IMG/VR virus record: IMGVR_UViG_3300046009_004608
Span: 1-53,987 of that record
Source: a virus
Taxonomy: Duplodnaviria; Caudoviricetes
DNA length: 53,987 nt
Reading direction: 5' to 3' (one strand)
The notes under the pieces are model-generated. The model saw only the letters and a program-made list of their open reading frames with translations, had not been told where the DNA came from and ran no database searches. Within the stretch, counting starts at the first letter, position 1. The number at the start of each line of letters is the position of its first letter. The translations under genes were made by a program, and so were the position numbers. Below, in pieces: positions 7,339 through 38,217 of this stretch.

Positions 7339-7509
7339 ATGCTAACCCTTGACCGACTTCTCTCAAACGGCTGGATCGATGAAGCCTACGCAAAGAAGAA
7401 GGGGATCGGTCGTCTGCCGGCGCAAATCCATAGACTCAGGGCAAAGGGCTACACCATCTTGGCAATCCGTAACGGCAATAAGTCTAAGTATGTGATCGGG
7501 GAGCCCTGA
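7339..7509 (+). CDS. Small winged-HTH DNA-binding protein
   Basis: GIGRLPAQIHRLRAKGYTI motif, typical of small phage wHTH proteins. Confidence 0.6.
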   Translation: MLTLDRLLSNGWIDEAYAKKKGIGRLPAQIHRLRAKGYTILAIRNGNKSKYVIGEP

Positions 7510-14042: not shown

Positions 14043-14224
14043 GGTACACATCCGACTTTATTGGCGCCGTAAAGGCGCGTCAGGCGCTGATCCAGCAGTC
14101 CATGGCACAGGGTAACCCTGTCGATTGGTCTGCCTATCAGCGTTTAGTCGGGGAATATCAAGGACTTGAACAGGCTCTTTCCATCCTTAACAACCTTTTA
14201 AAGGAAGAAGATGAAGATGAATGA
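14039..14224 (+). CDS. Conserved small head-module protein
   Basis: DWSAYQRLVGEYQGLEQAL pattern; lies between portal and GroES. Confidence 0.75.
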   Translation: MRYTSDFIGAVKARQALIQQSMAQGNPVDWSAYQRLVGEYQGLEQALSILNNLLKEEDEDE

Positions 14225-14639
14225 ACCGGTGGCGGGTGAATCCGCCGATTTGCGGGATGCCTTTCCTGCTGTAGACCCCGGTGCGAAGCCTTTGGGCGCA
14301 AGAATTTTGGTTCAGTTGCGCCGCACAAAGAAGAAAACAACTGGTGCCGGGATTATTTTGGTCGAAGAGACCAGAGAAGCCGAAAAGTGGAACAACATGG
14401 TGGCCAAAGTCGTTGAAATTGGCCCGCTTGCTTTCAAAAAGCGAGACACCATGGAACCATGGCCTGAGGGGTCGTGGTGCAAAGTAGGTGACTACTTACG
14501 AGTTCCTAAGTGGGGTGGTGATCGCTGGGAGGTAAAAGTCCCGGGCGAAGAAGAGCCAGCCCTTTTCATGGTCTTAAACGACCACGAAGTGATCGCCAAG
14601 GTCACGGGTAATCCCTTAGAAATGAAGGCACTGGTATGA
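14211..14639 (+). CDS. groES: Phage co-chaperonin GroES (Cpn10)
   Basis: KPLGARILV...TGAGIIL mobile loop, AKVVEIGP, CKVGDY, LNDHEVIA. Confidence 0.88.
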   Translation: MKMNEPVAGESADLRDAFPAVDPGAKPLGARILVQLRRTKKKTTGAGIILVEETREAEKWNNMVAKVVEIGPLAFKKRDTMEPWPEGSWCKVGDYLRVPKWGGDRWEVKVPGEEEPALFMVLNDHEVIAKVTGNPLEMKALV

Positions 14640-20450: not shown

Positions 20451-21032
20451 ATGGCAGATACCAAGATTTCAGCAATGACCGCAGCGGCTCTTCCCTTAAC
20501 CGGGGCAGAGTTGGTTCCTATTGTTCAAAGCGGTGACAACAAAAAGACAACGGTTGGCGACATCATTGCTTATAACCAAGCGTATGGTGCATGGAGCGAT
20601 TCCACAGATCAAACAGGTAGCACTACTGCAGGAACTGCAATTACTTATAACACTCAAGATATTTCTGACGGTGTAACGCTTGTTGATAACAGCAAGTTAA
20701 CGGTGCCAAATACCGGAATCTACGATGTTCAATTTAGCGCACAATTTAAAAATATCTCAAATTCTCAGCAAATTGTGACGATTTGGGTCAAGGTTAATGG
20801 TTCAGATTTAGCAAACTCAGCAACAAACGTAACAATTCCAGCAAGAAAAAGTGCAGGAATTTTTGGTTATCAAGTTGCAGCTTGGAACTTTTTCTTTCAG
20901 CTTAATTCTGCTGATTATGTTGAGCTCTATTGGTTACCTGAGAGTTTAGATGTAACGCTTGAGCATTTGCCGTCAACTGCGCTACACCCGGCAATTCCGT
21001 CAATGTTGGTGACCGTTCAGCAGGTAGCCTAA
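20451..21032 (+). CDS. Short fibre/spike with C1q/BclA-like trimeric head
   Basis: N-terminal KISAM...VPIVQSG anchor; LTVPNTGIYDVQFSAQF...IWVKVNG...LNSADYVELYW C1q-like pattern. Confidence 0.7.
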   Translation: MADTKISAMTAAALPLTGAELVPIVQSGDNKKTTVGDIIAYNQAYGAWSDSTDQTGSTTAGTAITYNTQDISDGVTLVDNSKLTVPNTGIYDVQFSAQFKNISNSQQIVTIWVKVNGSDLANSATNVTIPARKSAGIFGYQVAAWNFFFQLNSADYVELYWLPESLDVTLEHLPSTALHPAIPSMLVTVQQVA

Positions 21033-21590: not shown

Positions 21591-22664
21591 ATGGCTTACT
21601 CAGGAACTGTTGGAACTACAGTAATTGATGTCCAAACGCTGATAGATCACGCCGCCCGCCGGTGCGGGAAACTGGCTGAAGAGTTAACGTCAGAGCAACA
21701 ACTATCTGCCCGTGAATCTTTATTTTTCGCTCTATCTGCCTTGGCCAATATTGGCATCAATTATTGGGCAATCAGCAAAAAGGTCTTCGGTTTAAAGGCA
21801 GACCAGTACATTTATCAGCTCCCGTTGGGCGCAATCGATGTATTAAACGCCCTTTACCGGACAATGAACCGTCCGAGCGGCGATTACGCAACCAGCGCAG
21901 GGGGGAATGTCAGCTTTGTCGCAGACTCCGATATTGACACTTATTGTCAGCAAACCTCAGCCAACGGAAACATCTCCGTCTTCTACGGAACCAATAACCC
22001 AATTTACGCAGGATCTATTGGTCTTCTGCCTTACGTTTCAGGTGGCGGTAGTGCTACTTGGTCCATTATTTATGAATATTCTGTGGACGGCACAACGTGG
22101 CAAACCCTTGAAGACTTAGGTCAGGTTGTTGTCACAGATAATCAATGGATTTGGACGGATGTAGATCCGGGTGAGACTGTAGAGTATTACCGTATTCGGG
22201 GATACAACGGCACGACTTTGGCTATTCGGGAGTGGTTCGTAGGAAACAATAGTCGAGAGATTACGATGGCCCGCCTAAATCGCGACGACTACACAAACCT
22301 ACCGAATAAGAACTTTACGGCCAATCAGCCCTATCAGTTTTGGTTTGACCGCACGATCCCCCAACCTTCAATCTATCTTTGGCCAACCCCATCAGATCCG
22401 TTTATTCAGATGACGGTATGGTATTCCCGTCAGATCATGGATGTAGGAGCGCTGACCGATGAGCTGGAAGTTCCGCAGCGTTGGTATGAGGCTGTGGTTA
22501 TGATTCTTGCCCACCGGATGGCCTTAGAGCTGCCGCAGGTTTCGCCAGACAGGATTGGTTATCTTGAGCGTATGGCCGATAAGTATCTCTTCGAGGCCGA
22601 ACAGGAAGAGCGGGATAAATCGCCAATTTACTGGGCGCCAAATATCAGCGTGTATACAAGATAA
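21591..22664 (+). CDS. Head-tail adaptor-like protein with an inserted jelly-roll (discoidin-like) domain
   Basis: LIDHAARRCG...LANIGINYW, YTNLPNK...PYQFWFDR...IYLWPTP adaptor motifs; insert YEYSVDGTTWQTL...YYRIR. Confidence 0.7.
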   Translation: MAYSGTVGTTVIDVQTLIDHAARRCGKLAEELTSEQQLSARESLFFALSALANIGINYWAISKKVFGLKADQYIYQLPLGAIDVLNALYRTMNRPSGDYATSAGGNVSFVADSDIDTYCQQTSANGNISVFYGTNNPIYAGSIGLLPYVSGGGSATWSIIYEYSVDGTTWQTLEDLGQVVVTDNQWIWTDVDPGETVEYYRIRGYNGTTLAIREWFVGNNSREITMARLNRDDYTNLPNKNFTANQPYQFWFDRTIPQPSIYLWPTPSDPFIQMTVWYSRQIMDVGALTDELEVPQRWYEAVVMILAHRMALELPQVSPDRIGYLERMADKYLFEAEQEERDKSPIYWAPNISVYTR

Positions 22665-23005
22665 TGCCTATTTTTCTTGACACTACCGGACTGACTTCTT
22701 TAGCAATCGGCATTTGTGACCGATGCAAGATGAAGCGAACCTATGTAAGCCTTGGAACCGATCCAAACTTTCCGGGGTTACGGGTGTGTGATCAAGGTTG
22801 TGCGGATCAGAAAGACCCTTACCGTTTGCCGGCCAGAAAGACTGAGCGGATTAACCTTCGCTTTCCTAGGCCGGATGTCAGCGTTGCCAATGTTCAGCCT
22901 GCCTTGCAAACTGGCGGTTATGGCCAGTTTTTAATTTCGACTCAAGGCAATCAGGATGACCCAGAAAACAACGGAAACCTAGACGTTATTAGCCCGAGTC
23001 CATAA
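22664..23005 (+). CDS. Cys4 zinc-finger virion-module protein
   Basis: AIGICDRCKMK...GLRVCDQGCADQKDP...FPRPD. Confidence 0.75.
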   Translation: MPIFLDTTGLTSLAIGICDRCKMKRTYVSLGTDPNFPGLRVCDQGCADQKDPYRLPARKTERINLRFPRPDVSVANVQPALQTGGYGQFLISTQGNQDDPENNGNLDVISPSP

Positions 23006-24915
23006 TGCCTTCAGCACAAGTCACTATTACCCAATTACCGGCTGCGGGCCCAATTACGGGCACCGAGTCAGTTCCTATCGTCCAAAACGGTCAGACAGTA
23101 CAAACAACAACGGGGGCGATTGCCGCCTCCCCAAGTCAGACTCAGACCTTTATTACAGTTAACCAAGAGCCGAGCCTAATCAATAGCCGGTCATTGTCTG
23201 TCGGGTCAGGTCTTACTCTTACCGATGGTGGCGCCCAGTCCACCATGCAGGTCAACCTATCGGGTGCGGTTGCTAGCCTAGATTCTTCAACCGTAGGGAT
23301 GCAGGCTAAGACTAACGCTTCAACCATGGTTGGCCGCACAATTACGGGGTCAACTGGAGTTTCAGTCACAAACGGTAACGGCGTAGCGGGAAACCCCACA
23401 ATCAGCCTTACAGGGACCGTAGGGGCTTTGGCTGGGCTTGCCGGAACCGGAATTCTAGGCATCGTTGGCGGCTCTACCGTCACCGCGGTCGATATCACTG
23501 GGACGACCAATGAGATCGATGTAGCTAACGGAACCGGCCCCGGAAACCCAACTATTGGGATTTCTGACAACCCTCGGATGCCCGGCACCGGAGGGATGCA
23601 GGTTCCGACCGGAACTACAGCTCAAAGGATCGGAAGCCCAGACGGGTCTATCCGATATAACACCGACACCGATCAATTTGAGGGATTAGTTAACGGCACT
23701 TGGCTTAACGCCTTAGGTGCGTCTGGCTTTTCCGGAATCAGTGGATTTTCAGGTTTTAGCGGTATATCGGGTTTTTCGGGATTTAGCGGATTTTCAGGAT
23801 TTTCTGGCTTTTCTGGACTTAGCGGTATATCAAGCACCTTTTATCCATACCGCACTAATACGGGAAGTACCTCTGGAGACCCCGGATCAGGCAAGCTGTT
23901 ATGGAATAACGGAACTCAGACAAGCGCAACACAAATCAATGTCAATCACATAACGGACGATGGCGTTGATATTGATGTCTTTTTGGCCCTGCTTGCCCAA
24001 ACAGAAAACTTCATCATTCAGGATCAAGCTAATAGCGCAAACTTTCAGAAGTGGTTGATTAGCGGGGCACCATCAAACGCAGGCACTTACTGGACTATTC
24101 CTTGTACGCTAGTTAATTCTGGAGGTACAGGTACAACTGGATTTGCAGACAACCTCGAAGTCATCCTTGCAGTCGTAAACGGTATCAGTGGTTTTTCCGG
24201 AACGAGCGGGTTTTCGGGATTCTCAGGAATTTCCGGCTTTAGCGGATTTTCAGGAACGAGCGGATTCAGCGGTTTTAGCGGATTTAGCGGCGAGTCTGGA
24301 TTTTCAGGTTTCAGCGGAATTTCAGGATTTTCGGGCAATAGCGGCACGTCTGGCTTTTCGGGCTTTAGCGGTTATTCCGGATTAGACGGAGTCGCTCAAA
24401 GCGGTGTTTCTGGATTTAGCGGATTTTCGGGAGAAAGCGGATTTTCTGGCTTTAGCGGAATCTCCGGCTTTTCAGGAACCTCTGGATTTTCCGGCGGTGA
24501 TGGCGCGTCCGGATTTAGCGGATTTAGTGGCACATCGGGTTTTAGTGGCGAGTCAGGATTTTCAGGGACGTCCGGCTTTAGTGGCGAATCGGGATTTAGC
24601 GGATTTTCCGGAATAAGTGGATTTTCTGGAATTTCGGGATTTTCAGGAGAATCTGGAACCTCAGGATTTAGCGGAACGTCCGGATTCAGCGGGGCCTCAG
24701 GAATTAGTGGTTTTTCGGGCTTCAGCGGCACATCGGGATTTTCGGGTGCGCCGCCAACCACAATTGATGTCGCTACGACTTCTACGACGCCGGTTTACCC
24801 TGTTTTAGTAGCTGGAACTACGGGAAGTCAGAGCGCGTTGACGGATTCGGATTTGAGCTACAACGCAACAACTAATGCGTTTTTGTCTGGGGTTCAGGGC
24901 GGAACATTCTCATGA
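23005..24915 (+). CDS. Fibre protein with collagen-like Gly-X-Ser repeats
   Basis: Two (G-F/I/T/E-S)n blocks; beta-rich N-terminal part; ends VQGGTFS. Confidence 0.8.
   Translation: MPSAQVTITQLPAAGPITGTESVPIVQNGQTVQTTTGAIAASPSQTQTFITVNQEPSLINSRSLSVGSGLTLTDGGAQSTMQVNLSGAVASLDSSTVGMQAKTNASTMVGRTITGSTGVSVTNGNGVAGNPTISLTGTVGALAGLAGTGILGIVGGSTVTAVDITGTTNEIDVANGTGPGNPTIGISDNPRMPGTGGMQVPTGTTAQRIGSPDGSIRYNTDTDQFEGLVNGTWLNALGASGFSGISGFSGFSGISGFSGFSGFSGFSGFSGLSGISSTFYPYRTNTGSTSGDPGSGKLLWNNGTQTSATQINVNHITDDGVDIDVFLALLAQTENFIIQDQANSANFQKWLISGAPSNAGTYWTIPCTLVNSGGTGTTGFADNLEVILAVVNGISGFSGTSGFSGFSGISGFSGFSGTSGFSGFSGFSGESGFSGFSGISGFSGNSGTSGFSGFSGYSGLDGVAQSGVSGFSGFSGESGFSGFSGISGFSGTSGFSGGDGASGFSGFSGTSGFSGESGFSGTSGFSGESGFSGFSGISGFSGISGFSGESGTSGFSGTSGFSGASGISGFSGFSGTSGFSGAPPTTIDVATTSTTPVYPVLVAGTTGSQSALTDSDLSYNATTNAFLSGVQGGTFS
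23721..23832 (+). repeat. Gly-X-Ser triplet block 1 (about 12 units)
   Basis: SGFSGISGFSGFSGISGFSGFSGFSGFSGFSGLSGIS. Confidence 0.9.
24181..24747 (+). repeat. Gly-X-Ser triplet block 2 (about 60 units, one interruption)
   Basis: GISGFSGTSGFS...; 9-bp DNA periodicity with synonymous codons scrambled. Confidence 0.9.
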
Positions 24916-26321
24916 AGTATTCCGTAGTCATCCCAACCTATAACCATTGCGACGACCTGCTGCGGCCGTGTCTTGAATCTATTTTCAAGTACACGGACAT
25001 GAGCGAGGTCGAAGTCTTGGTTTCGGCCAACGGATGTACGGACAATACCCGCTGGTATCTTGAGTCACTAAAAAATCAATTTACCCGAATAGGCTTTGGG
25101 GATCACTTTAAGGTTATTTGGAGTGACACTCCACTTGGATATCCGGTGGCCTGTAATGTGGCCATACGGCATTCGACCGCAGATAAGATTGTTTTGCTCA
25201 ATAACGACTGCGTTTTGATTGAGCAGGACAAAAATACTTGGCTAAACCTTCTTGATGCGCCTTTTGAAAGCCCAAAAACTGGCATTTCCTGCGTAGTTAA
25301 AAACCGTTGTGAGATCACTAACCGTGAATTTGCAATTTTTTTCTGCGTTATGGTGCATCGCAAGGTATTTGAGACCATTGGCCTCTTAAATCCGGAGTAT
25401 GGGGTTGGCGGATGTGAGGACATCGACTTCTGTATTGAGGCCGAAGAGGCTGGTTTTGAGGTCACCCAGTGCGGAAGCAAGTTTTGGGACGGAAAAACTT
25501 TCGTTGGCGAGATGCCGGTCTATCACAAGGGCGAGGGAACCGTTTACGACACGGCTCTAGTTCAGGACTGGGACAATAAATTCAGGCAAAACCAGCTCAA
25601 ACTGGCTCAAAAGTACAGCCCAGCCAAGGCCGCCCAGCTTTCTTTAGCTTGGATGGCAGAAAACGGGCCGGAGGCGGCAGAGCTTTACAAGGAGGTTGTC
25701 GTTGAGAACGTTTATCAAGTCTCGGAGGACCTTATTAAAGGCCGTCCGGTCATCGATATCGGTGCCAATGTGGGTACTTTTGCTATTTTGGCTGCTAGCC
25801 TTGGGGCCTCAAAGATCGTGGCTGCCGAGCCGGTTTCTGAGACCTATGATCGCTTGGTTCAAAACCTACAAAGGGCGAGTGCCAACGCCGTAGCGATGAA
25901 GGCAGCAGTCATGGATAAGGTTGGAACCGTAGAGATTGGGGTAAACCCGAAGAGTGGGCATAACAGTCTTTACAAGTCTGAGAGCGGATCTGAGTCCGTC
26001 CCCTCGGTTACCTTGGCTGATCTGCTTGAGCACGTTGAGGGCAATGACATATTCCTCAAAATGGACTGCGAGGGGGCTGAGTACGATATTTTGATGGCCG
26101 CCACCCAAGAGGAAATGGACCGTATTGGCCGGCTGGCTATTGAGATTCATGGTGATATGCACCCCAAATACAAGGGTTTGGAGACCCTTTGGAGCCGTTT
26201 AGAGGCCCTTGGCATGAAACTTGTAGACCGCAAGCAGATCGGGGCTTGGGATGTCGATTCTGAGGGCAGAATGGTCAATTACCGTGACCTTCCCCGGACT
26301 AATGAGATTTGGAGCCGGTGA
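24912..26321 (+). CDS. GT2 glycosyltransferase fused to FkbM-family methyltransferase
   Basis: YSVVIPTYN, LLNND, GGCEDIDFC (GT-A fold); VIDIGANVG, AAEPV, FLKMDCEGAEYDIL (FkbM). Confidence 0.9.
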   Translation: MKYSVVIPTYNHCDDLLRPCLESIFKYTDMSEVEVLVSANGCTDNTRWYLESLKNQFTRIGFGDHFKVIWSDTPLGYPVACNVAIRHSTADKIVLLNNDCVLIEQDKNTWLNLLDAPFESPKTGISCVVKNRCEITNREFAIFFCVMVHRKVFETIGLLNPEYGVGGCEDIDFCIEAEEAGFEVTQCGSKFWDGKTFVGEMPVYHKGEGTVYDTALVQDWDNKFRQNQLKLAQKYSPAKAAQLSLAWMAENGPEAAELYKEVVVENVYQVSEDLIKGRPVIDIGANVGTFAILAASLGASKIVAAEPVSETYDRLVQNLQRASANAVAMKAAVMDKVGTVEIGVNPKSGHNSLYKSESGSESVPSVTLADLLEHVEGNDIFLKMDCEGAEYDILMAATQEEMDRIGRLAIEIHGDMHPKYKGLETLWSRLEALGMKLVDRKQIGAWDVDSEGRMVNYRDLPRTNEIWSR

Positions 26322-27280
26322 TGGTTCTCTGCTCGATCTCCACCCGTGGCCGCTATCACACCACGCTGCCTTTAGCGATTCAGGGGGTTTTGAGCCAAAC
26401 CCGGCCGGTCGATAGGCTGGTCATATTCGATGACAACGATGAGCCAAAGGATGTCCGAGAGGATTCGACCTATTTGGCGCTTTTGACCATGCTAGACCGC
26501 AAGGGCATCGCTTGGGAGTGGGTTTTTGCAGGTAAGAAGGGGCAGCACTATAACCATCAGGTGGCCAATACGATGGGCTATGAGTGGGTCTGGCGGGTGG
26601 ATGACGATGCCATCCCAGAGCCACATACCCTTGAGATCCTTCTGTCCTACGCCGATCAAGGGGTGGGAGCGGTCGGCGGGGCAATCCTAATCCCCGGAAA
26701 GCAGTTCGATACCTCAAAGTCCACCGGCAAGATTGAGAACATCGACTTTGAACCAAACCTTCAGTGGGCCGAGCTATCAAAGGCTACAGAAGTTGATCAC
26801 CTGCACTGCTCATTTTTATACCGGGCTGGGGTGGTGGACTATAACCTCGGGCTTTCAAGAGTGGCCCACCGGGAAGAGACTTTGTTTACCTACGGTTTAA
26901 GGAAAAAGGGCTACAAGATTCTTGCCGTGCCGAATGCGGTGACTTGGCATCTAAAGTCTGAAGGGGGTATCCGGATGGAAAAGAACCCCGGACTTTATGC
27001 CCACGATGAGAAGATTTTCCAAAACTTCATAAAGCACAAAGACGACACCATAGTGGTGCTAAACGGGGGTATGGGAGATCATATTGTCTTCACCCATGTG
27101 CTGCCGGACGTTAAAAATCCGATTGTATTTGGGTGCTATCCCGAGGTTTTGCCGTGTGAGTCGATTGCCAAGGCAAAAGAAATGTTCGGGGATATTGAAC
27201 CGTACAGTATTTATAAAAAGATGAACCAGTGGGGATGGAAAGATAGTTTAGAGAACGCTTATCGCAAACTGTACCTATGA
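26321..27280 (+). CDS. GT2-like glycosyltransferase with a C-terminal GT9-like N-half
   Basis: VLSQTRPVDRLVIFDD, WRVDDD, HREET; the C-terminus has VVLNGGMGDHIVF (GT9 GxGD motif). Confidence 0.82.
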   Translation: MVLCSISTRGRYHTTLPLAIQGVLSQTRPVDRLVIFDDNDEPKDVREDSTYLALLTMLDRKGIAWEWVFAGKKGQHYNHQVANTMGYEWVWRVDDDAIPEPHTLEILLSYADQGVGAVGGAILIPGKQFDTSKSTGKIENIDFEPNLQWAELSKATEVDHLHCSFLYRAGVVDYNLGLSRVAHREETLFTYGLRKKGYKILAVPNAVTWHLKSEGGIRMEKNPGLYAHDEKIFQNFIKHKDDTIVVLNGGMGDHIVFTHVLPDVKNPIVFGCYPEVLPCESIAKAKEMFGDIEPYSIYKKMNQWGWKDSLENAYRKLYL

Positions 27281-27720
27281 TTTTAATAGCGCCATATGCA
27301 AAAAAGCTAAGGAACGGAAAGCGAAACCCAAAGGACTATCCGTACTGGGAAGAGTTAATAAGAATGATTGATGAGCCGATCATTCAGGTGGGAATAGAAG
27401 GCGAAGAGCAGTTAGTTGAGGATTTTAGGAAAAACTTAAAGATTTCAGAATTAAGGGGTCTGATTAGACAGTGCAGGACATGGATAGGATGCGACAGCTT
27501 TTTCCAACATCTGGCTTGGGACGAAAAGAAGCCGGGAATTGTGCTTTGGTCGGTTTCAGATCCGCTGATATTCGGGCATCCGGAGAACATCAACCTGCTC
27601 AAGGATCGGTCTTACTTGGCTCCAAACCAGTTTCTTTGGTGGGAGATGGTCGAACACAAATTGGAACGGTTCGTTGAGCCGGAAGTTGTTTTAGAACATT
27701 TACTTGAGGTTGTCACTTAA
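27277..27720 (+). CDS. GT9 (heptosyltransferase-like) C-terminal Rossmann domain
   Basis: KDYPYWEELI...IIQVG...WIGCDSFFQHLA...KPGIVLWSVSDPLIFGHPEN. Confidence 0.82.
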   Translation: MILIAPYAKKLRNGKRNPKDYPYWEELIRMIDEPIIQVGIEGEEQLVEDFRKNLKISELRGLIRQCRTWIGCDSFFQHLAWDEKKPGIVLWSVSDPLIFGHPENINLLKDRSYLAPNQFLWWEMVEHKLERFVEPEVVLEHLLEVVT

Positions 27721-27732
27721 AGAGGTAAAACT

Positions 27733-28050
27733 ATGCCACAAGCAGGATATACGCCAATTCGGCTTTATTACAGCACCACCGGAGCAGCGGTTCCATTGGC
27801 CGCAAATATGCAGGCTGGAGAGCTTGCATTAAATATCGCTGATAACGATATGTCGATGTATACGGAAAACGCTACAGGAACTGTAAAGTTGTTTTTCAAC
27901 AATCCCGCGGCGCTCAAATACCCAACTGCGGATGGAACCAGCGGCCAAGCAATTGTCAGTAATGGGGCTGGAGTTCTTTCTTTCTCAACCATAACCAGCG
28001 GTGTATCAAAAGGGCAATCCATCGCATTCGCCCTTATCTTTGGACTATAA
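27733..28050 (+). CDS. Short fibre/adaptor with Mtd_N-like N-terminus
   Basis: PIRLYYSTT..AVP.AANMQAGELALNIAD; YPTADGTSGQAIVSNGAGVLSF shaft motif. Confidence 0.65.
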   Translation: MPQAGYTPIRLYYSTTGAAVPLAANMQAGELALNIADNDMSMYTENATGTVKLFFNNPAALKYPTADGTSGQAIVSNGAGVLSFSTITSGVSKGQSIAFALIFGL

Positions 28051-28060
28051 GGAGTAAATC

Positions 28061-28438
28061 GTGGCAAACCCAAATATTGTTAACGTCGCGGCGATATACG
28101 GAAACAATTCCAGTACATCGCTTTCTACCACTAACGCAACGGCAATCGTCAACAACCCGGCATCTAGCGGTAAGGTGTTCAAAGTCAACATGATTACCGT
28201 GGCTAACGTGGACGGAACTAGTGCTGCCGACATTACGATTAGCAAGTACAGCCAAGATGATATTGGCGGAACCGCTTATCAGATTGTCTCAACCGTATCG
28301 GTTCCTGCTGACGCTACTCTGATTGTGCTGGATAAGACAACGGCGCTGTATCTGAAAGAAGACGAGTCCATCGGTGCTACGGCGGGTACGGCCAGCGACC
28401 TTGTGGTGACTGCAAGCTGGGAGGAGATAAACGCTTAG
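28061..28438 (+). CDS. Conserved small virion protein
   Basis: MANPNIVNV...VFKVN.I.VANVDG...VPADATLIVLDK..LYL.E...SWEEI; TAAGGAG RBS, GTG start. Confidence 0.8.
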   Translation: MANPNIVNVAAIYGNNSSTSLSTTNATAIVNNPASSGKVFKVNMITVANVDGTSAADITISKYSQDDIGGTAYQIVSTVSVPADATLIVLDKTTALYLKEDESIGATAGTASDLVVTASWEEINA

Positions 28439-28466: not shown

Positions 28467-29699
28467 ATGAGTTTCCGTTATCCAAAGGGCGGGTTTATAA
28501 CTGCCTTTTATGATCCGCTACAGGTGCCAAATGCGCCGACCATTGGGACTGCTACTGCCGGAGATACGCAGTTATCGGTGACCTTTACTGCGCCAGCAAA
28601 TGTTGGCGGAAGTGCAATTACAGGTTACGGAGCCGTTGCTGTTGATAGTTCTGGAAATTCAATTAGCGGAACAGGGTCATCATCGCCAATTACAGTTACT
28701 GGACTGAGCAATGGAACGGCATACACCGCCAAGGTGTGGGCAATCAATAGCTACGGCCCAAGTCCTTATAGTGCAGCGAGTGGAAGCGTGACTCCGGCAT
28801 TTCAGCGAGCAGTATTTGGCGGGGGTTATGACACTAATGGAGTAACTAATGTTATTTCCTATATCAACATGGCATCAACCTCTGGAAATTCAATTGATTT
28901 TGGTGATTTAACCGTAGCTAGAAATGGACTTAGCGCAACATCATCGTCAAGCAGGGGAGTGTTTGGTGCCGGATTAAATAGTGGAAATACAAAACAAAAT
29001 GTGTTGGATTACATAACTCTTGCATCGATTGGAAATGCAATTGACTTTGGAGATTTAACTGTCGCTGTTAGCTATAACGCAGGTTGCGGGTCAAGCACAA
29101 GAGGTTTGTACGGAGGCGGTCAAAATACTTCAAATATTCCAGTGACTACTATTGGATACATAACAATAGCAACAACTGGTGATGCAACATCCTTTGGGGC
29201 GTTAACATTAGATCGGTACCAGCTAGGAGCTTGTTCATCAAGCACTAGGGGTGTTTGGGCGGGTGGATATAATAATGATGGCGGTGGTGCAAGACATAAT
29301 GTTATTGATTATGTAACGATTGCCTCCACTGGCAATGCTACTGATTTTGGAGATTTGCCAACGACAACAAATGCTTTGGGTGGGTGTTCATCTGCCACAA
29401 GGGGATTATTTGCCGGTGGGTCTACCGATAGCGGAGACACTAATGTCATCAATTACATTACCATTGCTTCAGCAGGAAATGCTAGTGATTTTGGGGACTT
29501 AATAAATCAACCATACAATTTTGCCGCTACATCATCTTCAACCAAAGGATTTTTTGCTGGCGGTTATTTTGGCGGAGAAACAAACGTAATTCAGTATGTC
29601 ACCATAGCGTCAACTGGAAACGCCATAGACTTTGGTGATCTTACGGCCGCAACAAATGGAATAGCTGGCTGCTCATCTGACCACGGAGGACTTCAATAA
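28467..29699 (+). CDS. FN3 domain plus six-bladed Kelch-like beta-propeller
   Basis: PNAPTIGTATAG...ITVTGLSNGTAYT..VWAINSYG (FN3); six ~49-aa repeats RGxFGGG...NVIDYxTIAS.GNA.DFGDL. Confidence 0.8.
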   Translation: MSFRYPKGGFITAFYDPLQVPNAPTIGTATAGDTQLSVTFTAPANVGGSAITGYGAVAVDSSGNSISGTGSSSPITVTGLSNGTAYTAKVWAINSYGPSPYSAASGSVTPAFQRAVFGGGYDTNGVTNVISYINMASTSGNSIDFGDLTVARNGLSATSSSSRGVFGAGLNSGNTKQNVLDYITLASIGNAIDFGDLTVAVSYNAGCGSSTRGLYGGGQNTSNIPVTTIGYITIATTGDATSFGALTLDRYQLGACSSSTRGVWAGGYNNDGGGARHNVIDYVTIASTGNATDFGDLPTTTNALGGCSSATRGLFAGGSTDSGDTNVINYITIASAGNASDFGDLINQPYNFAATSSSTKGFFAGGYFGGETNVIQYVTIASTGNAIDFGDLTAATNGIAGCSSDHGGLQ

Positions 29700-31546
29700 T
29701 GCCATCGTATTCAGGCGTCTGGAACCTCCAGCCGGTCTACCAAGCGGTAGCTCAGGGGCTGTGGCCGTATAGCCCGACTAACGGCCCGATTGGGTTGTTT
29801 GGGGGTGGGTTTACTACTACTGGCACAAATACAATACAACAAATAATTATTGCATCCCTTGGCGACGCTACCGACTTTGGAGATTTAACTCAAGCAAGAT
29901 ATCAAGGTGCATCTTGTGCCAGTTCAACAAGGGGAATTTTTGGCGGTGGTACTGTAGCAGGAAGTTATGTTAATGTAATTGATTATGTCACCATCGCTTC
30001 AGCAGGTAATGCTAGTGATTTTGGAGACTTGGTTGGTGCATACGCATATTTATCAGCAACATCAAATTATGTAAGAGGCATTTTTTTTGCTGGATACGAT
30101 GGATCGCCAATAAATATAATTCAATACATTACCATAGCAAGCACAGGCAACACTTCTGATTTTGGAGATTTATCATTATCTTGTTATACAAATGCGGCTT
30201 GCTCATCAAGCACAAGGGCATTAACTGCGTTAGCTTATACAACAGGAAATGTAAACATAATTGAATATGTAACTATTGCATCATCAGGAAATTCAACTGA
30301 TTTTGGAGATTTAACAGTCTCAAGAAATTCTTTATCAGGATCAGCATCAGACACAAGAGGATTGTTTGCTGGCGGAAACACTGGTTCAGTCTCTAATGTA
30401 ATTGACTATGTGACTATTGCTTCGGTAGGCAACGCTACTGATTTTGGTGATTTAACATTAGCAAGGTATTACATAGGATCTTGTGCATCAGCAACAAGAT
30501 CTGTAATGGGTGGTGGGTATACAGGATCAGCAGGATCAAACGTAATTGATTATGTAACCATTGCATCGACCGGTAATTCAACCGATTTTGGTGATCTTCT
30601 TGCAGCAACAAGTATTTACAATGCCGCCTGCTCCAACGCCGCATCAGCCGTTCAACCCACACCAACCAGCGCAGAAATGGCGTTTATTGGTGGAGGTAGA
30701 TCGGCAAGTGGTACACAAACCGTAATTCAATATGTAAACATTGCTACAACAAGCGACGCTTATATGTTTGGTGATTTAACATCAGACCGTGGATTTACCG
30801 GAGCGTGTTCTAGTTCCACAAGAGGAGTATGGAGCGGTGGTTATACTGAAGGTGCAGCAATAAATTTAAATATTATTGACTACATCACCATGTCAACATT
30901 TGGCAAAGCTACCGATTTTGGTGATTTGTTAAGCGCAACACGATTTGTTGCCTCATGTAGTAGTAGTACGCGCGGATTAATTGGCGGTGGCTTTATTGCT
31001 GCCGCGACAAATGTAATTGCGTACATAACGATTGCATCAGTTGGTGATGCACTAGATTTTGGTGATTTAAGCCAAGCTAGACAAGGACTTGCTTCATGCT
31101 CATCAACTACTAGAGGAATTTTTGCGGGTGGATATTCCGGAGCAACAAACTTTAATATTATTGATTATGTAACTATTGCATCAATTGGTAACGCTACAGA
31201 TTTTGGAGACTTAAATGGAGTTAGACAAACTTGCGCTGGATGCTCATCGGCAACACGCGGTTTGATTGGCGGTGGGTCGGACAATGTTGGAAATATAAAT
31301 GTAATTGATTACATCACAATTGCATCGGCTGGAAATGCAACGGACTTTGGTGATTTAACTGTTGCAAGAACTCAAATTAGTTCTGCATCGTCAACAACAC
31401 GAGGTTTGTTTATGGGTGGAAACCCAAGCGGCAACGTAATTGACTATGTGACCATTGCTTCCGCTGGAAACGCTACTGATTTTGGAGATCTTTTATATAA
31501 CACCAATACGGCGTCTGCTACATCAAACTGCCACGGAGGACTATAA
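29699..31546 (+). CDS. Tandem double beta-propeller protein (12 repeats)
   Basis: 12 FGD(L) repeats in two sets of six joined by ACSNAASAVQPTPTSA; ends SNCHGGL. Confidence 0.82.
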   Translation: MPSYSGVWNLQPVYQAVAQGLWPYSPTNGPIGLFGGGFTTTGTNTIQQIIIASLGDATDFGDLTQARYQGASCASSTRGIFGGGTVAGSYVNVIDYVTIASAGNASDFGDLVGAYAYLSATSNYVRGIFFAGYDGSPINIIQYITIASTGNTSDFGDLSLSCYTNAACSSSTRALTALAYTTGNVNIIEYVTIASSGNSTDFGDLTVSRNSLSGSASDTRGLFAGGNTGSVSNVIDYVTIASVGNATDFGDLTLARYYIGSCASATRSVMGGGYTGSAGSNVIDYVTIASTGNSTDFGDLLAATSIYNAACSNAASAVQPTPTSAEMAFIGGGRSASGTQTVIQYVNIATTSDAYMFGDLTSDRGFTGACSSSTRGVWSGGYTEGAAINLNIIDYITMSTFGKATDFGDLLSATRFVASCSSSTRGLIGGGFIAAATNVIAYITIASVGDALDFGDLSQARQGLASCSSTTRGIFAGGYSGATNFNIIDYVTIASIGNATDFGDLNGVRQTCAGCSSATRGLIGGGSDNVGNINVIDYITIASAGNATDFGDLTVARTQISSASSTTRGLFMGGNPSGNVIDYVTIASAGNATDFGDLLYNTNTASATSNCHGGL

Positions 31547-33481
31547 ATGAGCAAAAAATGGCCCGGCGGTTTTATTAAGCCGATACCTCCGACACCGACC
31601 GGCCCGTATCAAGACGGGGGTGCAACAGGGGTTTGGACGCTTGATCAGATGTCCTATTGGCTAAAGCAGGGTCTGTGGCCGATTGCTGGAAACGTGGCGC
31701 CAATTGGGTTGTTTGGTGGGGGGTTTGATGTTGGTTCATCAAATGTTATTGATAGCGTTGTGATTGCCACAGCAGGGAATTCAACAGATTTTGGAGACCT
31801 AAGTTTATCTAGATATGGTTTGGCAGGTTGTGCGTCAAATGTTCGTGGAGTATTTGGCGGAGGTACAACTGGAAGTAGTTCGAACGTAATTGACTACGTC
31901 ACAATTGCAAGTGCTGGTAATGCCACAGATTTTGGTGATTTAAGTGTCGCTAGACACTATTTAGCGGGTTGTTCAAATTATGTTAGGGGAACATTTGGTG
32001 GAGGAACAACAAGTAATGCTGCCGCAAGCCTTAATGTAATTGATTATATTACGATTGCTTCTGCCGGTAATGCAACAGACTTTGGTGATTTAACTGCAGC
32101 TTTTCAGTACATTGCAAGTTGTGCTTCGTCTACTCGTGGCATATTTGGAGGCGGAACAAATACAAGTGGTACAGACGTAAATATTATTAATTACGTAACA
32201 ATAGCCTCTACTGGAAATGCAACAGACTTTGGTGATTTGACGTTAGCAAGATACGCACTAACATCATGTTCATCAGAAACTAGGGGGACTTTTGGTGGTG
32301 GTGGAACTGGTCCAAGTAATGTAATTGATTACATCACAATTGCTTCCGTAGGAAATGCTACAGATTTTGGAGATTTGTTGGGCAACAATAGATTTCTAGC
32401 AAGTTGTGCCTCAAATGTTCGCGGTCTGTTTGGGGGAGGCTATGACGGCAGTGTTTATCTTAACGTTATTCAATTTATAACAATTGCAAGCACTGGAAAC
32501 TCTACCGATTTTGGAGATTTAACTGGGGCAAGAGGTTATTTAGCAGCCTGCTCCAACGCCGCATCAGCCGTTCAACCCACGCCGACCAGCGCAGCTATGG
32601 CGTTTTTTGGTTCCGGTGAAACAAGCGAGGGAAGACAAACTGGAATTCAATATGTAAACATTGCAACTACTGGAAATGCTTATTTATTTGGTGATTTAAC
32701 TTTTGGAGCGGTTACACCTGCCGCCTGTTCGTCGTCAACTAGAGGTCTTTGGGCGGGTGGAGAATTAAGTGATGGAACTACAAATACAAATGCAATTGAG
32801 TTTGTAACATTTTCAACTTTTGGCAAAGCAACTGATTTTGGAGATTTGCTTGGTGGAGCAAGATTACAAGGGGCTTGTTCTAGCGAAACCCGTGGTGTCT
32901 GGGGTGGCGGTCAAAATGCATCAGCAGTTATACAAAATGTTATTGAATATGTAACTATTGCGTCTGCCGGAAATTCAACAGATTTTGGAGATTTAACCGT
33001 AACTAGACAAGGATTGGCTGGATGCGGGTCAACAACAAGAGGTTTATTTGGAGGTGGTGAACCAGCAAGTGGTTTATCTAATGTTGTGGATTACATAACC
33101 ATTGCGTCTGCTGGGAACGCCACGGATTTTGGTGATTTAACTGTTGCAAGACAAAGTTTGTCTTCATGCTCATCATCAACTAGAGGTTTGTGGTTTGGTG
33201 GAGAGTCTGCCGGATCTGTTAAAACAAACATCATTGACTATGTAACTATTGCGTCGGACGGGAATGCTACCGATTTTGGGGATATAACTACTGGAACAAT
33301 AAGATGTTCATCGGCGTCTTCGTCAACAATAGGACTGGTTGGCGGAGGAATTCAAGCATCAAGAACAAATGTTATAGAGTATGTAACTATTGCATCGACA
33401 GGAAATGCTACAGATTTTGGTGATTTGTCTGGGGCAATTTCTAGTGGAGCAGCTTGTTCCAATGCCCACGGTGGACTATAA
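31547..33481 (+). CDS. Tandem double beta-propeller protein (12 repeats), paralog of 29699
   Basis: Same architecture and linker; ends SNAHGGL. Confidence 0.82.
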   Translation: MSKKWPGGFIKPIPPTPTGPYQDGGATGVWTLDQMSYWLKQGLWPIAGNVAPIGLFGGGFDVGSSNVIDSVVIATAGNSTDFGDLSLSRYGLAGCASNVRGVFGGGTTGSSSNVIDYVTIASAGNATDFGDLSVARHYLAGCSNYVRGTFGGGTTSNAAASLNVIDYITIASAGNATDFGDLTAAFQYIASCASSTRGIFGGGTNTSGTDVNIINYVTIASTGNATDFGDLTLARYALTSCSSETRGTFGGGGTGPSNVIDYITIASVGNATDFGDLLGNNRFLASCASNVRGLFGGGYDGSVYLNVIQFITIASTGNSTDFGDLTGARGYLAACSNAASAVQPTPTSAAMAFFGSGETSEGRQTGIQYVNIATTGNAYLFGDLTFGAVTPAACSSSTRGLWAGGELSDGTTNTNAIEFVTFSTFGKATDFGDLLGGARLQGACSSETRGVWGGGQNASAVIQNVIEYVTIASAGNSTDFGDLTVTRQGLAGCGSTTRGLFGGGEPASGLSNVVDYITIASAGNATDFGDLTVARQSLSSCSSSTRGLWFGGESAGSVKTNIIDYVTIASDGNATDFGDITTGTIRCSSASSSTIGLVGGGIQASRTNVIEYVTIASTGNATDFGDLSGAISSGAACSNAHGGL

Positions 33482-34363: not shown

Positions 34364-35104
34364 ATGCACCTAATGGTCGGGACACCGATGTACGGAGGGA
34401 TGTGCAACAGCGAATATGCACAGTCCATGATGGAGCTGCGGGAGTCGATGCAGAAGTACGACCACACGGTCACCTGCGTCTTCCTTGGCAATGAGTCGTT
34501 AGTCCAGCGGGCAAGGAATACCATCGCTTGGCACTTCCTGAACTCAGACGCCTCGCACCTACTCTTTATGGACGCAGATCAGAAGTTCCGTCCGGGAGAT
34601 GTAGCAAAGATGCTCAAGGCAGACAAGGACATCATCGGCGGGGCGGTTCCCATGAAGGGCATCAACTGGGATCGGGTACGGCAGGGGGCGGTATTAAACC
34701 ACCCAGACCTGTCGTTACTGACCGGCCACTTCAATGTGAACAAGCTAGACGGCCACGACATGGTTAAGCCAGACGAGCCGTTTCAGGTCAAGCACGTTGG
34801 CACTGGATTCATGCTGATTAAGCGCGAGGTCTTTGGCAAGCTCCAGCAACACGTTGACTACTACACCAACGGCGGGGCTACGATTCCTCCGGGTGAGAAG
34901 GTATACAACTTCTTTGATACCGGAGTGGTTGATCACGAGTTTCTGTCCGAGGACTATTGGTTCTGTAATAAGTACCGCGAAATTGGCGGTCAAGTTTGGG
35001 TTGCCCCGTGGTGTCAGGTGGGGCATTTTGGTTCTTATCTCTTTAGCGGGCAGTATGCCCAAGGAGCATTTCATGGCGCACCATTGCATAAAGTATCGTC
35101 TTAA
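34364..35104 (+). CDS. GT-A fold glycosyltransferase-like protein
   Basis: VGTPMYGG, NESLVQRARN, HLLFMDAD, GTGFMLIKREVF, LSEDYWFC, VGHFG. Confidence 0.85.
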   Translation: MHLMVGTPMYGGMCNSEYAQSMMELRESMQKYDHTVTCVFLGNESLVQRARNTIAWHFLNSDASHLLFMDADQKFRPGDVAKMLKADKDIIGGAVPMKGINWDRVRQGAVLNHPDLSLLTGHFNVNKLDGHDMVKPDEPFQVKHVGTGFMLIKREVFGKLQQHVDYYTNGGATIPPGEKVYNFFDTGVVDHEFLSEDYWFCNKYREIGGQVWVAPWCQVGHFGSYLFSGQYAQGAFHGAPLHKVSS

Positions 35105-37813: not shown

Positions 37814-38217
37814 GCACGGCCGTTAAATCTGACCCATCCAAATGGAAGCGCATCGTTGCCTCGGTGAAAGCCTCGGGCAAGGGTGGCGCTCCGGGTCAGT
37901 GGTCGGCTCGAAAGGCTCAATTGGCCACCCAGAAGTACAAGTCTTCCGGGGGTGGCTATAAAGGCCCAAAAAAGGCCGATAACAGCCTCTCCCAGTGGGG
38001 AAAGCAGGAATGGACTACCAAGTCTGGGAAGCCCTCTACGGTCGGCCCTAAGGCCACTGGGGAGCGATATCTGCCCAAAAAAGCCATCCAAGGGCTTTCC
38101 TCGGCTGAATACGCCGCCACAACCCGTGCCAAGCGGGAGGGGAAGGCTGCCGGTAAACAGTTTGTCTCTCAGCCCAAGGGTATCGCTGAGAAGACTAAGA
38201 AATATAGGAGCTGGTAA
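37810..38217 (+). CDS. DUF5872-like basic protein
   Basis: GKGGAPGQWSARKAQL...YK..GGGY...W.KQEWTTK...ERYLP..A...LS..E.AAT..AKR. Confidence 0.75.
   Translation: MSTAVKSDPSKWKRIVASVKASGKGGAPGQWSARKAQLATQKYKSSGGGYKGPKKADNSLSQWGKQEWTTKSGKPSTVGPKATGERYLPKKAIQGLSSAEYAATTRAKREGKAAGKQFVSQPKGIAEKTKKYRSW

Follow-up and report, generated by a model that had tools for sequence, protein, structure and literature searches.

A few mycobacteriophages, and giant viruses, are established cases of virion self-glycosylation. In BclA of the Bacillus anthracis exosporium, with whose glycosylation Daubenspeck 2004 is reportedly associated, the residue concerned is Thr, in Pro-containing triplets. According to the cited portions of each paper, the BclA tetrasaccharide contains 2-O-methylated anthrose (PMC6222408), and TibC, a single 406-aa chain with a four-Cys iron-finger that forms a dodecamer, transfers heptose from ADP-heptose to Ser residues of the adhesins TibA and AIDA-I (PMC4358343). 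Phage-encoded glycosyltransferases (GTs) of the mycobacteriophages Che8, Corndog and Myrna glycosylate the phages' own virion proteins (PMC12363180), and in PBCV-1 a structural protein bears a glycan whose end is made and O-methylated by the soluble GT-GT-methyltransferase A064R (PMC9614988). The peptide (Gly-Pro-Thr)10 is a random coil that becomes triple-helical when its Thr is galactosylated; in Riftia cuticle collagen and (Gly-Pro-Thr(Gal))10 the glycosylated Yaa residue replaces hydroxyproline as stabiliser of the triple helix, and salt-bridge triplets (KGD and KGE) are reported to abound in viral collagen-like proteins (all PMC11923368). The aquatic-phage papers we draw on take GTs beside fibre genes to modify the host surface or DNA. 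Our literature searches returned no report of tail-fibre self-glycosylation and none of a Gly-X-Ser fibre class.

We analysed a 53,987-nucleotide stretch of viral DNA (the window), in which a gene for a Gly-X-Ser (GXS) fibre is followed by a cassette of three enzyme genes. Judging from sequence and structural models, the fibre and these three 3' genes probably form a mobile system devoted to O-glycosylating and methylating a Ser-rich, collagen-like shaft. What is shown below is how the sequence is built, how the enzymes fold, and that shaft and cassette strictly co-occur. The features are as follows.

21591-22664, adaptor-like gene, 5' boundary of the region
22664-23005, + strand, conserved 113-aa protein adjoining the fibre gene on its 5' side (context)
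23005-24915, + strand, GXS fibre gene, 636 aa, open reading frame without internal stop
23005-23703, + strand, fibre N-terminal anchor domain, aa 1-233
23716-23832, + strand, GXS run 1, aa 238-276, 13 triplets
23833-24180, + strand, globular 'knot' domain between GXS runs, aa 277-392
24181-24378, + strand, GXS run 2, aa 393-458, 22 triplets
24403-24492, + strand, GXS run 3, aa 467-496, 10 triplets
24502-24744, + strand, GXS run 4, aa 500-580, 27 triplets
24745-24915, + strand, fibre C-terminal tip and stop, aa 581-636
24912-26321, + strand, GT2a-FkbM fusion (P0002), 469 aa, predicted GT-A glycosyltransferase plus FkbM-type methyltransferase
26321-27280, + strand, GT2b (P0003), 319 aa, predicted GT-A domain plus 77-aa C-terminal mini-lobe
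27277-27720, + strand, GT9C (P0004), 147 aa, predicted separate donor-binding lobe of a GT9-like GT-B enzyme
27733-28050, + strand, next gene, 105 aa, anchor-like N-terminus, marking the insertion point (context)
28467-33481, further fibre genes, 3' boundary of the region
34364-35104, + strand, separate GT-like gene (phrog_1574), outside the module

The fibre and the cassette are all encoded on the + strand, between the adaptor-like gene and the further fibre genes, which bears out the placement of the cassette inside a structural region by an earlier, sequence-only reading of the window. The same reading had described an ATGA overlap between the fibre gene and the GT2-FkbM fusion, and this was read directly at 24912-24915. 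The GT2a-FkbM stop TGA (26319-26321) overlaps the ATG at 26321 as TGATG, and GT2b and GT9C overlap as ATGA at 27277-27280. The open reading frame of GT2b opens at a TTG at 26309; its 319 aa are counted from the ATG at 26321. Promoter-like and terminator-like sites were no more frequent than in shuffles. Searches of Pfam and PHROG profiles gave no match for the 113-aa protein, homologues of which lie directly 5' of the fibre anchor in 79 of 80 anchor-related loci.

By script count, the four uninterrupted runs hold 72 strict G-X-S triplets; G.S matches across the entire 636-aa fibre number 75. Within the runs, X is F 41 times, I 10, T 9, E 5, A 3, and L, N, Y and V once each; there are no Pro, Lys, Arg or Asp residues and five Glu. 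These figures agree with the original estimate of about 70 triplets, with X mostly Phe and no Pro. All six types of Ser codon and all four types of Gly codon are used, and the DNA of the repeats is degenerate (60-83% matches), indicating that the periodicity is maintained at the protein level and did not originate in a recent DNA duplication. The Pfam Collagen profile (PF01391) matches the fibre at 98.6 bits (cut-off 27.2, E 1.7e-28), with its best stretch at residues 523-578 in run 4. As in collagen, Gly recurs at every third residue over long runs (13, 22, 10 and 27 triplets), but the stabilising content of collagen, that is, Pro/Hyp and Lys-Glu/Asp charge pairs, was not found in them.

The anchor shares 47% identity with the start of the tail fibre annotated in MW202545, a syntenic phage. 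The knot domain is conserved at 52-95% in other GXS fibres, in some of which it is duplicated, and the C-terminal tip, one of 7 unrelated C-terminal groups, occurs in only a subset of cassette-linked fibres. A three-copy structure prediction covering fibre aa 226-420 only gave an ipSAE of 0.53, against 0.01 for the best control, a mark that is reached by 20 of 30 solved pairs and by 1 of 23 single chains. Separate prediction runs agree in at least 47% of contacts, with a partner pLDDT of at least 61 (about 62). All confident inter-chain contacts lie in the knot domain; the GXS runs are placed without confidence, and their fold may be a triple helix or a PGII arrangement.

For the enzymes, profiles uphold the initial assignments (GT2-FkbM, GT2/GT9-N and GT9-C), and structure backs the GT9-like part. 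P0002 matches Pfam GT2 at 56 bits (cut-off 23.3, 6.2e-15), FkbM (Methyltransf_21, PF05050) at 47 bits (cut-off 22.7, 4.1e-12) and TIGR01444 fkbM_fam at 94.9 bits (cut-off 37.7); by profile its methyltransferase domain belongs to the FkbM family, with sugar O-methylation as a putative activity. At other loci the methyltransferase is of class-I type, either fused to a GT2 domain or free, and the accessory enzymes are GT-MT fusions of varying composition (GT2-FkbM, GT2-MT and GT2-GT2-MT) that include two unrelated methyltransferase types. P0003 matches Pfam GT2 at 31.4 bits (cut-off 23.3), and its AF2 model (pLDDT 91.2), with a GT-A domain at aa 1-240, retrieves GT-A enzymes in Foldseek (E about 1e-9 to 1e-10). 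Residues D37 D38, D94-D96 and G250 G252 D253 H254 are invariant across 32 sequences, and the 77-aa mini-lobe bears the invariant GxGDH. Membership in GT2/GT-A is indicated by profiles for both P0002 and P0003, and by the fold and the invariant D94-D95-D96 for P0003 only.

The match of P0004 to Pfam GT9 is marginal (22.3 bits, cut-off 22.0), and its AF2 model has a pLDDT of 92. The top four VIA matches of this model were WaaF (Z 14.0), TibC (13.6), WaaC (13.3) and a Veillonella GT9 (13.0), with the next at 11.6, and the top Foldseek matches (WaaF, TibC and WaaC) represent the same families. The GT9C profile aligns to WaaC 180-293 (E 0.018), and K19, D73, S74 and H78 align with WaaC K192, D261, T262 and H266, positions whose functional roles in WaaC we presume. 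By its model, GT9C appears to be a GT9-type C-terminal nucleotide-sugar-binding Rossmann lobe, nearest to those of ADP-heptose heptosyltransferases. The GT9 arrangement of two full Rossmann lobes in one chain of ~320 aa was not found in the cassette: the C-lobe is a separate 147-aa gene in all 32 representatives, and the candidate N-lobe is the 77 aa at the end of GT2b. GT9C is present in 79 of 80 loci and overlaps GT2b by 4 nt in 31 of 32 representatives; one rare natural GT2b-GT9C fusion (P0009) was found. Because GT9C-like domains also occur fused to pyruvyltransferase or methyltransferase, the partner lobe of GT9C is not fixed. The NCBIfam heptosyltransferase I equivalog scored 17.4 bits (cut-off 185.3), and the best NCBIfam matches of the cassette enzymes are polysaccharide enzymes with scores far under the cut-offs. 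No membrane-spanning segments are predicted in the cassette enzymes.

Co-occurrence of GxS repeats with this GT set across phages, proposed as a check in the sequence-only reading, held in three independent designs. With the cassette defined by GT2b, which has at least 176 relatives in viral contigs, we examined the best 80 loci. Wherever at least 3 kb of sequence lay upstream of the cassette, it contained a same-strand GXS open reading frame (37 of 37 loci, and 20 of 20 clusters at 90% identity). Lowering the requirement to 2 kb upstream gives 45 of 46, and the twin locus of the single miss (L064) has the fibre 7 kb upstream. The gap from fibre to cassette has a median of 79 nt (range 0-7058). 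In the anchor survey, 444 relatives in viral contigs yielded 80 loci, of which 42 were informative: five had a GXS fibre with the cassette, none a GXS fibre without it, none a non-GXS fibre with it, and 37 continue into non-GXS fibres without it (Fisher p 1.2e-6, the five GXS cases amounting to about 3 lineages). Among the non-GXS relatives, a homologue of the 27733-28050 gene lies directly 3' of the fibre gene, whereas in the GXS relatives the cassette stands between the two. The fibre-first survey, which used degenerate GFSx4 and GYSx4 DNA patterns and a minimum of 25 GXS triplets, gave 21 contigs, 17 of them with the cassette (16 within 10 kb and one at 45 kb on the same contig). The four records without it (L088, L352, L322 and L371) are estimated to be 10-58% complete; L371 has a GT2a-like gene only and no full cassette. 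No GXS open reading frame lies on the 13.6-kb contig of L291, a distant relative of the cassette (43% identity) that is a four-GT fusion of 1016 aa.

The position of the cassette varies, being downstream of the fibre, upstream (L341), convergent (L109/L370) or 45 kb off (L328). By N-terminus the 44 complete cassette-linked GXS open reading frames divide into 8 unrelated groups, and by C-terminus into 7, again unrelated, so that the GXS shaft alone is common to the linked fibres. In 49 fibres with 5899 triplets in all, position Y holds Ser in 82% and Thr in 4%, position X holds Tyr, Ile or Phe in 67%, and Pro accounts for 2.1% of X and 0.4% of Y. The carriers extend from a 38.7-kb isolate, the Methylophilaceae phage P19250A, where a 1201-aa GXS fibre is followed by a methyltransferase, GT2b and GT9C, to contigs of more than 100 kb. 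Many of the loci are related, and the counts therefore exceed the number of independent events; the co-occurrence could also partly reflect joint transfer of adjacent genes.

One claim fell away, namely that a fourth GT at 34364 belongs to the set. The gene at 34364-35104 scores below threshold against GT profiles (Anp1 19.7, cut-off 28.8; GT2 17.9, cut-off 23.3) and matches phrog_1574 at 5.4e-40. Its family spans 69 GenBank phage records (45 from Synechococcus phages) and is absent from all related loci examined. On these matches it is a separate, widespread phage family outside the module.

The co-occurrence of GXS fibre and cassette across many unrelated phages suggests that the phages glycosylate their own fibre, a reading whose whole basis is gene association and fold similarity. 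In the scheme that follows, we infer the substrate, the O-linkage to Ser, the identity of the sugars, the order of steps and the fold. A cytoplasmic, glycan-building cassette would modify the GXS shaft ahead of virion assembly. The invariant pair of GT2b and GT9C would be the core enzyme, with GT9C providing the lobe that binds the nucleotide sugar in a GT-B enzyme of GT9-like (heptosyltransferase-like) type and the 77-aa end lobe of GT2b providing the GxGDH element, which would hold the catalytic Asp. Either this pair or the GT-A domain of GT2b would add the first sugar to the hydroxyls of Ser at triplet position Y, the other GT-A domains would lengthen the glycan, and the methyltransferase (FkbM here, class-I elsewhere) would O-methylate a sugar, the product being a densely O-glycosylated rod. 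Since the shaft lacks Pro and charge pairs and has aromatic residues or Ile at X, we would expect the glycan to make the collagen-like helix more stable or more soluble, besides covering it. The glycan may carry a methyl cap, and its purpose may be shielding, adhesion or stability. A bolder form of the proposal, which we hold only tentatively and think doubtful, is a 'glyco-collagen': a Pro-free, charge-free Gly-(Tyr/Phe/Ile)-Ser triple helix, folded and soluble only through O-glycosylation of every Y Ser by a new split GT9-like enzyme, with the glycan then extended and methylated. The sugar would here replace hydroxyproline and salt bridges, and swappable GT and MT domains would give a lineage-specific glycan coat to a uniform shaft.

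GT2 and GT9 enzymes act mostly on lipid-linked or polysaccharide acceptors, which counts against a protein acceptor, and it is chiefly for their part in making LPS and polysaccharides that the two families are known. The cassette might instead remodel the host surface (LPS core, O-antigen or capsule) during infection, as part of the same host-range module as the GXS fibre, and could thereby exclude superinfecting phages or keep progeny off debris. Aquatic-phage papers, in the parts cited, read GTs beside fibre genes in this way (PMC7029224, PMC10202952), and the FkbM part weakly resembles V. cholerae RfbT, under its cut-off. We nevertheless judge host-surface remodelling rather unlikely: the cassette follows the GXS shaft and not the receptor-binding tip (7 C-terminal and 8 N-terminal groups), none of the 37 non-GXS fibres of the anchor family has it, its enzymes are without membrane segments, and the GT9-like acceptor lobe is reduced to about 77 aa, unlike that of LPS heptosyltransferases.

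It is also unlikely that GXS is not the acceptor and that the sugars go onto some other protein of the virion (capsid, tube or other fibres), or that the cassette produces a glycan, free or lipid-linked, which the fibre requires in order to assemble. Such a role would fit the eight loci with a second GXS gene 3' of GT9C, the other fibre genes in fibre-cassette gaps of up to 7 kb, and the inclusion of capsid among the known glycosylated virion proteins of mycobacteriophages (PMC12363180, in a portion citing Freeman 2023). However, the GXS open reading frame is the sole feature common to all cassette neighbourhoods, and capsid and tail genes differ among carriers, for example between the window and the siphovirus-annotated P19250A. 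We regard as highly improbable a plain physical linkage in a mobile fibre cassette, or modification of phage DNA, either of which would leave the enzymes functionally unconnected to the fibre. It is known that fibre modules recombine as units, and the literature sampled includes phage GTs that modify DNA, but the pairing persists while order and distance vary, no DNA-hypermodification genes lie nearby, and the cassette is within the structural module.

If the cassette does modify the GXS shaft, environmental phages of a widespread class, represented by at least 176 viral stretches, cover their fibres in self-made methylated glycans, a new split relative of the heptosyltransferases works on protein, and there is a second, Ser-based natural solution to collagen stability without hydroxyproline. 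The annotation of P19250A gene 0023, now 'tail length tape-measure protein', would also be corrected, and this isolated phage offers a model for a direct test of fibre glycosylation.

Among known systems, ordinary collagen-like phage fibres (PF01391; phrog_6320, phrog_5073 and phrog_1806) share with the GXS fibre Gly at every third residue and matching profile hits; unlike them, the window's runs have no Lys, Arg or Pro, and Ser occupies Y in 82% of triplets across the family. The glycosylated-threonine collagens are animal or synthetic and use Thr, not Ser, 'serine' being absent from the main text of PMC11923368. PBCV-1 A064R, compared by description only, parallels the GT2-FkbM, GT2-MT and GT2-GT2-MT fusions in combining several GT and MT domains, but it makes an N-glycan on a capsid protein of a eukaryotic virus. 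The mycobacteriophage targets, likewise compared by description, are capsid proteins of actinobacteriophages, with no GXS fibre. We know of no GT9-like split enzyme in mycobacteriophage virion glycosylation. TibC/AAH (BAHT) enzymes resemble the proposed system in having a GT9-like GT-B fold and many Ser of a repetitive adhesin as target, and TibC ranks second among the structural matches to GT9C (Z 13.6, rmsd 2.6, 140 aligned). Unlike in TibC, the C-lobe is the separate 147-aa GT9C and the candidate N-lobe a 77-aa GT-A tail; neither significant sequence similarity to TibC (E 0.97) nor the four-Cys iron-finger that marks BAHT was found in P0004, which has 2 Cys. BclA differs in belonging to a bacterial spore and not to a phage fibre, the GXS fibres having mostly Ser at Y and almost no Pro. 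Like the GXS fibre, it is a surface filament with collagen-like Gly-X-Y repeats and a hydroxy amino acid at Y, and it carries O-linked oligosaccharides ending in a methylated sugar, as we propose for the GXS fibre.

The window record has an estimated completeness of 95%. Among the genes on its plus strand are those for terminase, the portal region, a GroES-like protein, capsid, adaptor, fibre and lysozyme. The genes considered here are the following:

23005-24915, + strand: fibre gene, product of 636 aa
24912-26321: P0002, GT2a-FkbM
26321-27280: P0003, GT2b
27277-27720: P0004, GT9C

Residues 1-233 of the fibre (the anchor) are 47% identical to the annotated tail-fibre N-terminus of the syntenic phage MW202545, whose tail-fibre gene has the equivalent position, preceded by the adaptor gene and a small conserved one. 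Beyond residue 233 there are 72 strict Gly-X-Ser (GXS) triplets in four runs, split by a globular domain of 116 aa (residues 277-392, the knot) and ending in a 56-aa tip. X is Phe in 41 of the 72 triplets, and Pro, Lys, Arg and Asp do not occur within the runs; the sequence-only reading, which had put the number at about 70 with mostly Phe and no Pro, was thus accurate. The gene uses the full set of Ser and Gly codons and its DNA repeats are degenerate; therefore, the periodicity is kept at the protein level. Gly periodicity also accounts for the matches of the fibre to Pfam Collagen and to several 'tail fiber' PHROGs. When the whole fibre was the tblastn query, the non-repeat parts alone matched, as the low-complexity filter masks the repeats.

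A three-copy structure prediction of residues 226-420, made with a custom alignment, scored 0.53 against 0.01 for the best control. Among 30 solved pairs 20 attain that mark, and among 23 single chains 1; this calibration comes from two-copy cases, which differ from three copies. Contact agreement between runs was at least 47% and partner pLDDT at least 61. The model supports trimerisation of the fibre through the knot domain, and for the repeats it does not discriminate a triple helix from polyglycine-II. In three related loci (L008, L216 and L054), single GXS fibres have two knot domains, always with repeats on both flanks; the doubled domain may be a repeated trimerisation or registration node.

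Three genes, which we call the cassette, follow the fibre gene without gaps, joined by start/stop overlaps of ATGA, TGATG and ATGA in that order; the ATG at 26321 is likely the true start of P0003. The junction sequence confirmed the proposed ATGA overlap between the fibre gene and a GT2-FkbM fusion, and P0002 does carry both a GT2 domain and an FkbM methyltransferase in one chain. Membrane-spanning segments are absent from all of the cassette enzymes. The model of GT2b (pLDDT 91) consists of a GT-A domain and a 77-residue alpha/beta lobe. Many GT-A enzymes resemble its GT-A part to the same degree, and Foldseek did not discriminate the acceptor type, with protein GalNAc-transferases scoring about the same as polysaccharide and teichoic-acid enzymes; a profile search against PDB sequences gave no match (best E 0.77). 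Among 32 relatives, D37-D38, D94-D96 and, in the small lobe, G250-x-G252-D253-H254 are all invariant. The GxGDH motif, together with one rare natural GT2b-GT9C fusion (P0009, 489 aa) recovered in a search for longer forms, makes this lobe a putative counterpart of the GT9 N-lobe.

The last cassette protein, GT9C (147 aa, model pLDDT 92), is on its predicted fold the donor-binding lobe of a GT9-type enzyme, in agreement with its initial assignment as a GT9 C-terminal half. VIA-align against 48,161 chains ranked WaaF first (Z 14.0, rmsd 2.5, 130 aligned), followed by TibC (Z 13.6, rmsd 2.6, 140 aligned), WaaC (Z 13.3, rmsd 2.4, 124 aligned) and a Veillonella GT9 (Z 13.0), with the fifth falling to 11.6, and Foldseek agreed. 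A profile of 33 relatives matched WaaC 180-293 at E 0.018, aligning K19, D73, S74 and H78 of GT9C with K192, D261, T262 and H266 of WaaC, which we take to be its ADP-heptose-binding residues. All 32 representatives, which share no more than 85% identity, have GT9C as a separate gene, and in 31 of the 32 it overlaps GT2b by 4 nt. The database matches P0010, P0012 and P0013 have a GT9C-like domain fused to a polysaccharide pyruvyltransferase (PF04230) or a class-I methyltransferase, which suggests additional glycan-decorating variants of the system.

The make-up of the accessory enzymes varies by locus. The window has GT2-FkbM, and other loci have a class-I methyltransferase (MT), either free or fused to GT2. 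Larger forms are also found:

L068: GT2-GT2-MT
L072: GT2, then GT2-MT-FkbM
L063: 1341-aa protein combining several MT and GT2 domains

Two unrelated methyltransferase types in the same slot argue that methylation would be a required step in the system, and the varying number of GT domains suggests that the length of the glycan may differ between loci.

The proposed co-occurrence of GXS repeats with this set of enzymes held when approached from the enzyme and within the fibre family, and mostly held (17 of 21) when approached from the repeat. For the enzyme, we found 176 relatives of P0003 in viral contigs and analysed the best 80 loci of the 176. GT9C follows GT2b in 79 of these 80, and the lone exception stops at the contig edge. 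Wherever the sequence upstream of the cassette extended for 3 kb or more in one of the best 80, it held a same-strand ORF with a GXS run; this covers 37 of 37 loci and, after clustering at 90% identity, 20 of 20 clusters. Relaxing the requirement to 2 kb gave 45 of 46, and to 1 kb 52 of 60; the loci that missed have short flanks. The gap between fibre and cassette has a median of 79 nt (range 0-7058), and eight loci have an extra GXS gene 4 nt past GT9C.

For the fibre family, 444 relatives of the anchor yielded 80 loci, 42 of them with a complete fibre gene and at least 3 kb downstream. The cassette is present with 5 of 5 GXS fibres and 0 of 37 non-GXS fibres (Fisher p 1.2e-6, a value that exaggerates independence since the five represent about three lineages). 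In the non-GXS relatives, a homologue of gene 27733-28050 lies directly 3' of the fibre, which implies that shaft and cassette arrived jointly; judged by gene order, they were inserted distal to the anchor or replaced what lay there.

For the repeat, a GFSx4 DNA pattern proved noisy, most of its matches, many on giant-virus contigs, having no in-frame GXS ORF. We therefore considered only ORFs of at least 25 triplets, added a GYSx4 scan, and left out loci with flanks of about 300 bases as uninformative. These two degenerate patterns gave 21 distinct contigs with usable flanks. The cassette lies within 10 kb of the fibre in 16 of them, whether downstream, upstream (L341) or convergent (L109/L370), and in L328 the same contig carries it at a distance of 45 kb. 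It was not found in the remaining four, whose records are estimated to be 10-58% complete; one of these has a GT2a-like gene alone. Among GXS fibres with no cassette, the largest (L088; 2185 aa, 258 triplets) has nearby what may be a different modification system:

L088, 4657-6288: 544-aa protein combining a Methyltransf_24 domain with a 380-aa N-terminus that has no domain assignment

The N-termini of the 44 complete cassette-linked GXS ORFs form 8 unrelated groups, and their C-termini form 7 unrelated groups. Over 5899 triplets from 49 distinct fibres, the third position (Y) is Ser in 82% and Thr in 4%, X is Tyr in 31%, Ile in 19% and Phe in 17%, and Pro accounts for 2% of X and 0.4% of Y residues. 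By sequence comparison, a Ser-rich, Pro-free shaft is the sole common denominator of the linked fibres. Only one of 50,697 GenBank phage records, that of the isolate P19250A (L002, KX815270), has a GT2b relative, and its fibre is misannotated as a 'tail length tape-measure protein':

P19250A gene 0023, 7391-10996: 1201-aa GXS-repeat fibre, 213 GXS triplets

A class-I methyltransferase, GT2b (64% identity) and GT9C (69%) follow it. A scan of 185,579 species genomes returned 6 loci, all on MAG contigs, and identified no cellular counterpart.

Several other genes in the window deserve mention. The product of 20451-21032, a 193-aa protein of the head-tail region, matches the C-terminal domain of BclA below threshold (24.9 bits where the cut-off is 38; E 2e-5), a curious neighbour given that BclA is a glycosylated collagen-like protein. 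A GroES-like co-chaperonin (14211-14639; Cpn10, E 7e-7; phrog_3188) lies within the structural module and is annotated in MW202545 too. The 117-aa product of 1674-2027 scores above the cut-off for the Rap1a type VI secretion immunity family, with E 1.2e-15, which is unusual for a phage. The SU10 adaptor family is matched weakly by the C-terminus of 21591-22664 (E 3.8e-6) and over the full length of 38217-38852 (E 1.8e-25), a hint that the tail could be that of an SU10-like podovirus, with a pair of adaptor-type proteins. Gene 28061-28438 (125 aa), conserved in 19 anchor-related loci, has 72% DNA identity to a 'putative lectin' gene of phage DSL-LC04 (OR003939). Downstream of the cassette, 28467-33481 holds three large consecutive genes (410, 615 and 644 aa) sharing segments of phrog_19111 and phrog_26444, the first with an fn3 domain; these are probably paralogous fibres or spikes. 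The glycosyltransferase at 34364, which had been counted as a fourth member of the system, was rejected: it belongs to the widespread phrog_1574, whose relatives were in none of the related loci examined; 69 GenBank phage records contain one, 45 of them from Synechococcus phages, with Sinorhizobium phages, Caulobacter Cr30 and Pelagibacter phages among the other carriers.

Anchors, tips, gene orders and genome sizes are unrelated between carriers, yet the pairing stays with the shaft; this is our main argument against each of the other explanations we considered. The cassette could remodel the host surface, a role in keeping with GT families that usually serve polysaccharides, or it could act on another virion acceptor. 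It could also be associated with the fibre by linkage, and joint transfer is able to produce such an association. DNA modification by the cassette was rejected on gene position and neighbours. Along with the four cassette-free GXS contigs, a distant cassette relative, L291 (43% identity), counts against a system dedicated to the shaft: its 13.6-kb MAG contig lacks any GXS ORF, and on it GT9C lies some 580 nt beyond a four-GT fusion:

L291, 2293-7600: radical-SAM gene, then a 1016-aa fusion of three GT2a-like domains and GT2b

We favour the reading that the cassette would be a dedicated system modifying the GXS shaft, the individual steps of which we infer. Precedents make these steps plausible. 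Published examples are TibC, a GT9-like enzyme with an atypical N-lobe that heptosylates many Ser of a repetitive adhesin (PMC4358343); BclA's collagen-like region, whose O-glycans are capped by a methyl-sugar (PMC6222408); PBCV-1 A064R, a viral GT-GT-MT enzyme (PMC9614988); and (Gly-Pro-Thr)10, a random coil that becomes a triple helix when Thr is glycosylated at Yaa (PMC11923368). Viral collagen-like proteins are reported to rely strongly on KGD/KGE salt bridges (PMC11923368), whereas KGD/KGE triplets are wholly absent from GXS shafts. Without modification, a G-(aromatic)-S helix would thus be left with no known stabiliser, and for this reason the glycan may have a structural role in addition to a protective one.

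In the literature searched, which mostly did not cover subscription journals, a GXS repeat paired with GTs is undescribed, and we found no such pairing in work on phage collagen-like fibres and GTs, on virion glycosylation by GT/MT enzymes, or on tail and fibre glycosylation. For archaeal viruses, one paper goes no further than suggesting glycosylation of tail proteins, from gene proximity (PMC11706807). Self-glycosylation of viral structural proteins is known; what would be new here, judging from the sequences and models, is the class of substrate and the split enzyme.
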